Below, piece after piece: positions 28,445 through 30,767 of a DNA stretch of 32,000 bases. The stretch is from Propionibacterium ruminifibrarum. Lineage in GTDB: Bacteria; Actinomycetota; Actinomycetes; Propionibacteriales; Propionibacteriaceae. Within the stretch, counting starts at the first letter, position 1. Each line of letters starts with the position of its first letter. The notes under the pieces were generated by a model. That model made no database searches. It was not told where the DNA came from and saw nothing but the letters and a program-made list of their open reading frames with translations. The stretch lies in the NCBI RefSeq assembly GCF_900289195.1, contig NZ_OMOH01000004.1:60001-92000 (forward strand), in the 5' to 3' direction. The translations under genes were made by a program, and so were the position numbers.

Positions 28445-30289
28445 ATGCCGAAACTGCGTTCACGCGTCACCTACGAGGGGCGTCCGATGGCCGGCGCCCG
28501 CGCCCTGTGGCGTGCCACCGGCATGGGCGACGACGACTTCGGGAAGCCCATCGTCGCGATCGCCAACTCCTTCACGGAGTTCGTCCCCGGGCACGTCGGG
28601 CTGCGCAATGTCGGCTCGATCGTCGCCGACGCGGTGAAGGCCGCGGGCGGTGTTGCCAAGGAGTTCAACACGATCGCCGTCGACGACGGCATCGCCATGG
28701 GCCACGGGGGCATGCTCTACTCGCTGCCCAGCCGCGAGATCATCGCCGACTCGGTCGAGTACATGTGCAACGCGCACCAGGCCGATGCGCTCGTGTGCAT
28801 CTCCAACTGCGACAAGATCACCCCGGGCATGATGCTGGCGGCCTTCCGCCTCAACATCCCCACCGTGTTCGTCTCGGGCGGCGGCATGGAGTCGGGCCGT
28901 CCGATCACCAACGACGACGGCACGACGAGCAGCCGCCTCGACCTCATCCACCCGATGACGGCGTCGGCCGACCCTGGCGTTTCGGACGCCGAGCTGGCGC
29001 GCATGGAGGCGAACGCCTGCCCCACCTGCGGCTCGTGCTCGGGCATGTTCACCGCCAACTCGATGAACTGCCTCACCGAGGCCCTCGGGCTGGCGCTGCC
29101 CGGCAACGGCACCACCCTGGCCACCTTCAGCGCCCGCAAGTCCCTCTTCGCCGAGGCCGGGCGGCTCGTCGTCGCCAATGCCCGGCGCTACTACGACGAG
29201 GACGACGACTCGGTGCTGCCGCGCTCGATCGCCACCCGCGGGGCCTTCGCCAACGCCATGACGATGGACATCGCCATGGGCGGCTCGACGAACACGATCC
29301 TGCACCTGCTGGCCGCCGCCCAGGAGGCCGGCGTCGACTTCGACCAGGACGACATCGACGAGCTCTCGCTCCACGTGCCCTGCCTGTGCAAGGTGGCCCC
29401 GAACAGCAACGTCTTCTTCCTCGAGGACGTCCACCGCGCCGGCGGCATCCCCGCGATCCTCGGCGAGCTGCGCCGCGGCGGTCTGCTCGACATGGAGGTG
29501 CACTCGGTGCACCACGACTCCATGGCGTCCTTCCTGGACGACTGGGACGTGCGCGGCGGCTCGGCCCTGCCCGAGGCCGTGGAGCTCTACCACGCCGCCC
29601 CCGGCGGCGTACGCACCACCGAGATGTTCAGCTCGACGAACCGCTACGCCGAGCTCGACACCGACCCGGTCGAGGGCTGCATCCGTGACATCGCCCACGC
29701 CTACACCGCCGACGGCGGCCTGGCGGTGCTGCACGGCAACATCGCCGTCGACGGCTGCGTCGTGAAGTCGGCAGGTGTGCCCGAGGACCAGTTCGTGTTC
29801 AGCGGTCCCGCCCATGTCACCGAGTCCCAGGAGGAGGCCGTCGAGCACATCCTCGGCGGCAGGGTGAGGGCCGGCGACGTGGTCGTCGTGCGCTACGAGG
29901 GCCCCAAGGGCGGCCCCGGCATGCAGGAGATGCTCTACCCCACCAGCTACCTCAAGGGCGTCGGGCTGGGTCCGAAGTGCGCCCTCATCACCGACGGCCG
30001 GTTCTCGGGCGGCAGCTCGGGCCTGTCGCTGGGGCACATCAGCCCCGAGGCCGCCGCCGGTGGCGCGATCGGCCTGGTGCGCGACGGCGACATCATCGAC
30101 ATCGACATTCCCGCCCGCGCGATCAATGTGCGGGTCAGTGACGAGGAGTTGGCCGCGCGCCGCGCCGAGCAGGACGAGGCCGGCTGGAAACCGCGCCACC
30201 GCGACCGGGTGGTCTCGAACGCGCTGAAGGTCTTCGCCCTGCTGGCCCAGAGCGCCGACAAGGGCGCGGCCCGCCGCCGACTCGACTGA
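28445..30289 (+). CDS. ilvD: Dihydroxy-acid dehydratase
   Basis: [26 protein letters not shown]...[16 protein letters not shown]...[16 protein letters not shown]...[17 protein letters not shown]...[36 protein letters not shown], with ATG 28445 following 7 nt later. Confidence 0.95.
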
Positions 30290-30342
30290 ACCCCCGCACT
30301 CGTCCTGCGGTTCTTGTGCGTCATTCCACGACGACCGCAGGA
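30252..30342 (+). repeat. 91-bp direct repeat, copy 1 (last 38 nt of the ilvD CDS including the stop + 11 nt + hairpin unit A)
   Basis: Aligns without gaps to 30596-30686 with 87/91 identities by hand alignment. Three of the four mismatches are C->T. Confidence 0.85.
30301..30342 (+). repeat. Hairpin repeat unit A (42 nt)
   Basis: GTCCTGCGGT-TCTTGTGCGTCATTCCACGACG-ACCGCAGGAC has 10-bp perfect arms and starts 12 nt after the ilvD stop. An inner CGTC/GACG stem with a 7-nt ATTCCAC loop is possible. Confidence 0.85.
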
Positions 30343-30410
30343 CTAGTGCGGGCAACGGACCGATCGGAGTCCAAGCGCATCCCCATGCTCACCCGCCCAC
30401 CGGACCATCG

Positions 30411-30450
30411 CCCTGCGCATCTTGTGCGTCATTCCACGACGACCGCAGGA
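30411..30450 (+). repeat. Hairpin repeat unit B
   Basis: CCTGCGCATCTTGTGCGTCATTCCACGACGACCGCAGGAC. The loop and right arm are identical to A; the left arm is degenerate (GT->CA). Confidence 0.85.
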
Positions 30451-30516
30451 CGAGCGAACATGGGCTGCTCAGACGAGCCCCGCGGACACCTGTCCCCAAG
30501 CCACCTTCAACCTCCA

Positions 30517-30556
30517 CCCTGCGGTTCTCGTGCGTCATTTCACGACGACCGCAGGA
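30517..30556 (+). repeat. Hairpin repeat unit C
   Basis: CCTGCGGTTCTCGTGCGTCATTTCACGACGACCGCAGGAC, with two loop substitutions relative to A. Confidence 0.85.
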
Positions 30557-30595
30557 CGAACCACAGAAGACCGACGGCAGCTCACCCTGCGCTTT

Positions 30596-30686
30596 ACGCC
30601 GACAAGGGCGCGGCCCGCCGTCGACTCGACTGAACCCCCGTACTCGTCCTGCGGTTCTTGTGTGTCATTCCACGAAGACCGCAGGA
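30596..30686 (+). repeat. 91-bp direct repeat, copy 2 (orphan ilvD 3'-end fragment + hairpin unit D)
   Basis: CGCCGACAAGGGCGCGGCCCGCCGTCGACTCGACTGAACCCCCGTACTC + unit D. It would encode ...[11 protein letters not shown], identical to the ilvD C-terminus, but has no gene upstream. Confidence 0.85.
30645..30686 (+). repeat. Hairpin repeat unit D
   Basis: GTCCTGCGGTTCTTGTGTGTCATTCCACGAAGACCGCAGGAC, with full 10-bp arms and two loop substitutions. Confidence 0.85.
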
Positions 30687-30767
30687 CGAGGGGGCTCCCC
30701 GTCGCAAGACAAACCGGTTCGGAAGCCAAACCGCAGGACGAAGCCGCGTTTCCCCATGGCGAGCCGG

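Follow-up and report, generated by a model that had tools for sequence, protein, structure and literature searches.

The TRIT element of Gardner et al. (2011, PMC3152330) is a palindromic hairpin that is restricted to Mycobacterium, where its 147 dispersed copies are centred approximately 8 nt ahead of the stop codon. It is without a canonical U-tract and has been proposed to act as a terminator at gene ends, and as the element is palindromic such a terminator would therefore be bidirectional (PMC3152330). It is conserved in both sequence and structure, and the conservation of its sequence prompted the suggestion that a factor binds it (PMC3152330). Here we analyzed an array of hairpin units that occupies the spacer between two convergent genes, ilvD and lysE, in Propionibacterium ruminifibrarum, within a stretch of 32,000 nt (assembly GCF_900289195.1, contig NZ_OMOH01000004.1, positions 60,001 to 92,000; hereafter the window). 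The array had first been noticed in a sequence-only reading of this DNA made by a model. Our analysis points to a quasi-palindromic family that is confined, wherever searches were feasible, to the ilvD-lysE spacer of the clade formed by P. ruminifibrarum and P. australiense, and whose members multiply and disappear through recombination between repeats; we give this reading as a whole, including the role in RNA 3'-end formation discussed below, a probability of about 55%.

The spacer between the ilvD and lysE stop codons spans positions 30290-30767 (Table 1). Allowing up to two mismatches, a 38-nt core, CCTGCGGTTCTTGTGCGTCATTCCACGACGACCGCAGG, matches its plus strand four times, with starts at 30304, 30412, 30518 and 30648, and was recovered in 0 of 100 dinucleotide-preserving shuffles. 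When placed in a single register the copies correspond to 42-nt units, designated A to D, at 30302-30343, 30410-30451, 30516-30557 and 30646-30687. The four same-orientation units recognized by the sequence-only reading are thus real, with coordinates that were off by 1-2 nt, and the gaps between them measure 66, 64 and 88 nt instead of the 68, 66 and 88 nt first reported. Repeat analysis agreed that the three intervening segments are mutually unrelated inside the window, and Tandem Repeats Finder detected 0 arrays between positions 30200 and 30800. The first unit (A, or H1 in the longer allele described below) begins 13 nt past the ilvD stop codon, with 14 nt separating the stop from the unit A core, and the remaining units of the window lie 120-360 nt downstream. 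Two isolated half-units that had been reported also exist, at slightly different positions: the lone left arm CCTGCGC occupies 30586-30592 rather than 30584-30590, and for the lone right arm, ACCGCAGGACGA, the position is 30730-30741 rather than 30728-30739. Start-to-start spacings of 108, 106 and 130 nt place the units in different reading frames, three in all, and the open reading frames (ORFs) that cross them lack a Pfam match; we therefore rejected a coding reading, as had been done from the sequence alone. What had been overlooked was a 94-nt direct repeat with 95% identity between its copies, in which the final 37 nt of the ilvD coding sequence and its stop codon are followed by 11 nt and one unit, so that the spacer contains a displaced copy of the ilvD 3' end (Table 1).

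To compare alleles of the array within the species, we gathered about 25 contigs through exact look-ups of the LysE and HepT proteins. The LysE protein of the window is 100% identical to a protein assigned by NCBI to P. ruminifibrarum, and the exact IlvD protein of the window is present on Logan contig ERR1938110_51. The commonest allele, which is complete in nine assemblies, carries seven units together with an mntA-hepT operon (complete set: L083/L106, L084/L111, L107, L108, L109, L110, L113 and L114; partial: L112 and L115). Its first half reads ilvD - H1 - s1 - H2 - sC' - H3 - (mntA hepT) - H4, and H4 is followed by s1 - H5 - s2 - H6 - sC - lone left arm, directly joined to ilvD 3' copy - H7 - lone right arm - lysE, where H designates units and s the segments between them; all seven units of these other alleles are on one strand. 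The two genes of the toxin-antitoxin operon were recognized by their NTP_transf_2 (E = 5e-11) and HepT-like (E = 2e-17) domains. One assembly (L088) has five units and the toxin-antitoxin pair, and the arrangement of four units without the pair was seen only in the window and in two Logan contigs of run ERR1938110, which end inside units A and B.

When the window spacer was aligned globally with that of L109, the two proved approximately 99% identical apart from one clean indel, whose junction falls in the right arm of a unit, such that unit A of the window consists of the left half of H1 and the right half of H4. The segment present in L109 is flanked by 157-nt direct repeats that are 89% identical and 984 nt apart, with the run from H1 through s1 to the left part of H2 equivalent to the run from H4 through s1 to the left part of H5. 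Given these flanking repeats, the window allele is therefore most simply explained by a deletion through recombination between them, and as judged from this alignment the four-unit allele is a derived one, equal to the seven-unit allele minus ~984 nt that include the mntA-hepT operon.

The sister species has a closely similar locus. In the complete genome of P. australiense (LR134442.1; L104), ilvD, mntA, hepT and lysE occur in the same order, with four homologous units upstream and three downstream of the toxin-antitoxin pair, and the HepT protein is 83% identical to that of P. ruminifibrarum. Directly past the ilvD stop codon of this genome the left arm is repeated perfectly in tandem (18 nt x4.4). 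Whole units form a further tandem repeat (90 nt x2.9). The unit ahead of the operon (H3 in P. ruminifibrarum, Hd in P. australiense) ends 36-40 nt before the mntA start, and another (H4/He) sits after hepT. Contigs of a P. australiense-like type (L093-L095) have three units, with the toxin-antitoxin pair missing through a 1126-nt indel, and a further lineage (L117; LysE 88% identical) has a complete spacer with two units, no toxin-antitoxin pair and no ilvD copy. Comparison of strains for unit number, which the sequence-only reading had advocated, thereby yielded alleles with 2, 3, 4, 5 and 7 units. No units were found in the more distant lineages at hand, namely one with a LysE 77% identical, one with a LysE 72% identical, and P. 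freudenreichii. The lysE gene of the first of these is not adjacent to ilvD, and in the second the two genes are separated by a five-gene peptide/ABC-transporter operon (L101:6009-11555). The ilvD-lysE junction is in this respect a variable spot across the genus.

Rearrangements of the array could be traced to five independent junctions, which fall at five different positions relative to the hairpin. That between the window and L109 falls within the right arm, where 9 nt are identical (CGACCGCAG); that between L088 and L109 (214 nt) is at CCGCAC, left of the hairpin; and that between L093 and L104 is 15-20 nt right of the hairpin, in CAGAAG(A/C)C..AAC. At the duplicated ilvD end, the junction follows CCTGCGCTTT in a left arm, which is joined there to ilvD codon -13; the lone left arm of the window, CACCCTGCGCTT at 30583-30594, is the left arm of H3 of the seven-unit allele, cut at this point. 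Finally, 38 nt are missing from L089-L091 between two GCAGGA(C/T) motifs. Such scattered junctions fit homologous or short-homology recombination together with slippage, and speak against a recombinase that uses one fixed crossover point. Taken together, the alignments establish that the units are paralogues, evidently multiplying and vanishing along with their flanks by recombination or slippage between direct repeats, and that one past event evidently duplicated the 3' end of ilvD too. The sequence-only reading would have been refuted, by its own account, if the core occurred nowhere else and if relatives had a single ordinary terminator at the locus, with a recent local duplication behind the copies. 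The core was indeed found nowhere else that could be searched, and local duplication explains its copies, but relatives carry two to seven units and not one terminator.

In the predicted fold of the units, an outer stem of 11 bp is separated by a 1x1 C/C mismatch from an inner stem of 5 bp, which closes an 8-nt loop, CGTCATTC, giving a hairpin with arms of about 15-20 bp overall. The 22-nt loop described earlier was a misreading. In unit A the flanks contribute 8 bp more, for an arm length of 26 nt. For units A, C and D the fold is considerably better than that of shuffled sequence (z -5.3 to -8.6). Unit B folds no better than shuffles whether treated as RNA (z -1.3) or as DNA (z -1.4), which bears out the earlier observation that the changes in its arms are uncompensated, and the loss of a better-than-shuffled fold in both unit B and H4 argues against constraint on sequence or structure. 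Folding energy showed no consistent strand asymmetry across units. We next assembled 25 distinct units from both species into an alignment (A1), from which a covariance model (R1) was built; the pattern CTGCGNNTNTNGNGNGTCNTNNCACNNNNACCGCAG could serve in its place. The hairpin leaves 73.6% of cells of this alignment paired, compared with 71.0% after shuffling, and the covariation score was matched or exceeded in 28 of 500 shuffles, which amounts to marginal support. Sixteen of the 25 units do not keep the G-C pair at columns 17/43, and the right arm is better conserved than the left.

Levels of polymorphism provide a second view of constraint. Among five distinct seven-unit haplotypes, 2.26% of sites are variable in the cores and 2.03% in the unique spacers, with 0.3-1.0% in the flanking genes. 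Between P. ruminifibrarum and P. australiense, the orthologous cores upstream of mntA (H3 and Hd) are identical at 28 of 38 positions (74%), and identity at third codon positions between L109 and L104 is 0.87 for ilvD, 0.75 for lysE and 0.68 for mntA and hepT. By this comparison the cores are no better conserved between species than synonymous sites. The uneven third-codon identity points either to strong codon constraint in ilvD or to a different history of the toxin-antitoxin genes. Within P. ruminifibrarum, four linked substitutions in 29 nt of unit H6 (L109:10597-10634) separate two haplotypes, CTTGCGGTTCTTGTGCGTCATTCCACGACAACC and CCTGCGGTTCTCGTGCGTCATTTCACGACGACC, and this block looks like a gene-conversion tract between units. 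The sequence-only reading had taken the conservation of the loop as a sign of sequence-specific selection. With units that are recent paralogues, cores as polymorphic as spacers and weak covariation, we would instead attribute it to recent common descent, that is, to recent duplication and exchange between units, and not to a recognition code. The units probably stay similar mainly for these reasons, with residual constraint possible at a few positions.

How such an array might have arisen can be proposed in outline. The founding unit would have been a stem-loop that ended ilvD, the toxin-antitoxin operon, or both. Units may act mainly as roughly symmetrical hairpins of the RNA 3'-end or terminator type, devoid of a U-tract, that part convergent transcription, and their palindromic nature may itself drive the instability of the array. 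We hold with moderate confidence that the units are gene-end stem-loops, serving putatively as transcription barriers or 3'-end stabilisers, that have been multiplied by repeat recombination.

Around the units a terminator scan returned small alternative hairpins only, besides a separate site on the lysE side, 35-63 nt past the lysE stop codon, whose hairpin (30733-30715) is a candidate for the terminator of lysE itself. The left arm of unit D (30644-30656) can pair 13/13 with the lone right arm rather than with its own right arm; this pairing overlaps the lysE-side hairpin (30715-30733), so that mutually exclusive structures are possible. The counterpart of the lone right arm in P. australiense adjoins the lysE stop codon. 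A scan of the array detected no promoter-like site. We also considered the units as an operator for MntA and judged this unlikely: MntA is a bare nucleotidyltransferase domain in which no DNA-binding domain was detected, and alleles without the toxin-antitoxin pair keep their units. At the start of mntA in both species (L109:9670-9692 and L104:9670-9692), TATCAT is followed by 6 nt and the ATG, leaving no room for a ribosome-binding site, and the hexamer looks like the -10 box of a leaderless mRNA.

To define the distribution of the units, we searched 1.3 Mb of loci, including about 50 actinobacterial ilvD loci, with model R1. Strong matches (47-80 bits) were obtained only in the ilvD-lysE spacer, all others scoring at most 25 bits. 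No unit was present elsewhere in the 32-kb window or in ~40 kb of further flanks, taking both species together. An exact 28-mer had 0 matches among one genome per GTDB species, which is weak evidence, and when the genome collection was searched with the IlvD protein, the best relatives among the matches listed were 73% identical. Screening of JGI metagenomes with a degenerate 22-mer gave a single match (L002), which we judged to be due to chance given that it is without a left arm and has a lower G+C content. Neither blastn against plasmids and phages nor a cross-species degenerate pattern run against viral contigs produced a match to a unit. A known RNA family, the other outcome the sequence-only reading had foreseen, was not found either: with E up to 10, the sole Rfam match was malK-III, whose 15.9 bits (E = 2.7; gathering score 50) are at chance level.

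Several observations weigh against the reading we favor. No T-run follows any unit on either strand in the terminator scan, and mycobacterial RNA polymerase is reported (PMC3993855) to require a U-tract; a role of the units as terminators or RNA ends is in this light putative. Fifteen columns are invariant in all 25 distinct units across both species, among them CTGCG and CGCAG, GTC in the loop, and CAC where the inner right stem opens, and these columns leave recognition of a specific sequence possible to some extent. In P. australiense a perfect palindrome of 16 bp makes up the unit ahead of mntA, and selection for pairing could lie behind it. With regard to distribution, the JGI scan did not return L108, L112, L113 or L115, all of which carry the pattern, making negatives from the collections weak, and the host DNA examined outside the array amounts to ~70 kb, with which a dispersed family of fewer than ~100 copies per genome is compatible. 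At a density like that of TRIT (~1 copy per 30 kb), the probability of finding 0 copies in 70 kb is ~0.1. The absence of copies from ~70 kb excludes REP-like densities and weakly disfavors a TRIT-like one.

These considerations bear most directly on the possibility that the array is one local group within a palindromic family interspersed over the whole genome at many gene ends, REP/BIME- or TRIT-like, perhaps maintained by a RAYT-type transposase or a hairpin-binding termination factor. We regard this as unlikely, if the strongest of the alternatives. Like TRIT (PMC3152330), the units are palindromic, U-tract-less, located past a stop codon and conserved in sequence and structure; the host DNA scanned is a small part of both genomes; and short-read contigs break at the units, as they would in any case because of the local copies, which are sufficient alone. 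Set against this are the lack of any other copy in the window, flanks and 1.3 Mb of loci, the (weak) 28-mer result, and the single orientation of the units, unlike that of BIME pairs. Moreover, no cas, transposase, RAYT or recombinase gene is present in the 32-kb window, and no RAYT or cas gene in the flanks, so that the RAYT/IS200-IS605-type or recombinase gene for which the sequence-only reading had suggested looking does not accompany the array in the window. Somewhat less probable to us is that the units are functional RNA or protein-binding elements, whether small RNAs, stability or processing signals in the ilvD 3' untranslated region, or an array of sites for a regulator reading CCTGCG...CGCAGG. 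The invariant motifs listed above speak for such a role, as do the extra half-sites (the lone arms of the window and the 18-nt tandem left arms of P. australiense) and the G-U pairs of H1, which keep its outer stem paired on the ilvD-sense strand. Yet folding energy is without consistent strand asymmetry, the fold is lost in units B and H4, cores are as polymorphic as spacers, units number anywhere between 2 and 7 and keep to no fixed arrangement, a promoter-like site was not detected, and MntA has no detected DNA-binding domain.

Sites for a recombinase encoded elsewhere, of the attC, lox or dif kind, would make the segments between units, mntA-hepT among them, cassettes of an integrase-less array. 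The architecture invites this comparison, each unit having two ~15-bp inverted arms about an asymmetric 8-bp center and all units being in direct orientation; the toxin-antitoxin pair is bounded by units and present or absent in two species, the junction of the window indel is inside a unit, and the two types of outer stem, GTC/GAC and ACC/GGT, occur as hybrids in H1 (GTC/GGT) and H4 (ACC/GAC). We tried a reciprocal crossover of the attL/attR type as the source of these hybrid stems and rejected it, since the right flanks are paralogous parts of the 157-nt repeat, and it is because of this paralogy that H1 and H4 appear complementary with partners swapped. Other evidence is also unfavorable: the five junctions lie at five positions, the 157-nt repeats at the toxin-antitoxin indel suffice for ordinary homologous recombination, the centers differ among units (CGTCATTC, CGTCATTT, TGTCATTC and CGTCTTCC), RYYYAAC/GTTRRRY boxes are absent from both strands on direct reading of the units, no recombinase gene lies within 32 kb, and a HepT homologue in another context (L116, beside a PIN/FitA pair) has no units. 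We consider such sites improbable, and marginally more so the version in which a cassette system, with mntA-hepT and the short ORF-less segments as its cassettes, is served by an unlinked recombinase and the variable junctions are secondary homologous events superimposed on site-specific ones. An unconventional CRISPR-like array, suggested by the alternation of ~38-46-nt repeats with unique 64-88-nt segments in the window, we regard as refuted: there is no cas gene in window or flanks, the spacers are common to strains and s1 is itself duplicated, one spacer holds the copy of the ilvD 3' end, P. australiense has plain tandem repeats, and there are 2-5 mismatches between repeats.

Table 1. Features of the ilvD-lysE locus (window positions unless a contig handle is given).
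Feature	Position	Strand	Basis or remarks
ilvD (dihydroxy-acid dehydratase), 614 aa	28445..30289	+	ORF list; ILVD_EDD_N and ILV_EDD_C domains
94-nt direct repeat, copy 1	30253..30346	+	true ilvD 3' end, stop codon, unit A
Unit A	30293..30352 (core 30304-30341)	+	longest hairpin: 26-nt arms, 85% complementary, RNA dG (predicted folding free energy) -42.8 kcal/mol
Spacer s1	30344..30409	+	unique in window; twice in seven-unit allele, within 157-nt direct repeat
Unit B	30410..30451 (core 30412-30449)	+	left arm degenerate, GCGCAT instead of GCGGTT
Spacer s2	30452..30515	+	unique
Unit C	30516..30557 (core 30518-30555)	+	core match and fold
Segment sC (GAACCACAGAAGACCGACGGCAGCT), then lone left arm	30558..30596	+	sC has a homologue in P. 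australiense
94-nt direct repeat, copy 2	30597..30690	+	displaced ilvD 3' end and stop codon (30597-30633), unit D (core 30648-30685)
Terminator-like hairpin and T-rich tail, CGGTTTGGCTTCCGAACCG then GTTTGTCTTG	30705..30733	-	consensus scan alone
Lone right arm AACCGCAGGACGA	30729..30741	+	13/13 complementary to unit D left arm (30644-30656)
lysE/argO-type amino-acid exporter, 202 aa	30768..31376	-	convergent with ilvD
mntA-hepT operon	L083:10969-11624; L109:9690-10345	- in L083	absent from window strain

The remaining genes of the window are of the housekeeping and polysaccharide-synthesis kind, encoding a radical SAM protein, HemA, AsnB, transaldolase, a glucitol phosphotransferase system and an alcohol dehydrogenase, together with a glycosyltransferase/EpsG cluster and, beside IlvD and LysE, a LysR-type regulator. 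Past the LysR gene, a sugar-acid utilisation block (ADH, SDR, MFS, SGL, IclR, MR_MLE) varies within the species: L083, L086 and L106 have it, whereas in L084 and L085 it is missing or shorter (L083:1-8712 versus L084:1-8176 and L085:1-8852). It represents a second presence/absence polymorphism near the array. Upstream of ilvD in P. australiense (L104:4548-6510), where P. ruminifibrarum has the polysaccharide cluster, are a pRiA4-ORF3-like gene and a fragment of an IS256-type transposase, and mobile-element remnants therefore lie 1-3 kb from the array in that species; the IS256-like ORF is a single-locus fragment. Downstream of lysE in P. freudenreichii (L103:6700-6900), four tandem ~30-nt left-arm copies (CGATCGGCTCCGGGxAGGGGCCTGCGAGAC) are followed by a full hairpin, GGGGCCTGCGAGGCGC...GCGCCGCCTCGCAGACCCC. 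In sequence this stretch is unrelated to the ilvD-lysE units, and the layout of tandem half-palindromes and a hairpin is that of P. australiense past ilvD.

The array is a real feature, outside Rfam, and most likely of an ordinary kind: a palindromic repeat or variable-number tandem repeat (VNTR) array restricted to one lineage and one locus. Its notable property is that a type VII toxin-antitoxin operon, MntA/HepT, has repeatedly been gained or lost there in two sister species. As read here, it would be a natural example of a palindromic gene-end hairpin seeding an unstable intergenic repeat array. It duplicates the end of an essential gene and breaks short-read assemblies, and its unit number (2-7) could mark strains of rumen Propionibacterium. 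For the reading of sequence alone it carries a caution, in that a loop as conserved as its stem can mean mere recent paralogy. Were a dispersed TRIT- or REP-like family, or sites of a recombinase, to prove true instead, this would be new for Propionibacteriaceae.

That the units fit REP/BIME, MIRU and CRISPR arrays none too cleanly, as the sequence-only reading remarked, is supported by their single orientation, the lack of tandem arrays in the window and the lack of cas genes, and each known system shares some of their properties. Integron attC/CALIN arrays and the pdif modules of Acinetobacter plasmids likewise have hairpin sites in one orientation that bound segments, including a variable toxin-antitoxin pair; the ilvD-lysE units differ in having no R/L boxes, no integrase (in the window) and no fixed crossover, and in that their indels are flanked by long direct repeats. 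REP/BIME elements are also short, imperfect intergenic palindromes, often clustered past convergent genes and substrates for rearrangement, but BIMEs pair inverted REPs whereas these units have one orientation, no RAYT within 32 kb and no dispersed copies in the DNA searched. The likeness to MIRU/VNTR loci lies in intergenic units of 40-100 nt in an actinobacterium with a strain-variable unit number (2-7 here) and, in P. australiense, in true head-to-tail arrays (90 nt x2.9 and 18 nt x4.4). The likeness is one of layout, and there are differences: the units of the window are parted by unique 64-88-nt segments, and ilvD-lysE units are palindromic, are neither in frame nor translationally coupled with the flanking genes, and are known at one locus. 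With the canonical intrinsic terminator the units share the GC-rich hairpin and not the U-tract. TRIT differs in its distribution, as the ilvD-lysE units cluster in one spacer, begin 13 nt past the stop codon and occur at no other gene end in the DNA examined; as a palindromic, U-tract-less hairpin at actinobacterial gene ends, it is nevertheless their closest functional precedent.

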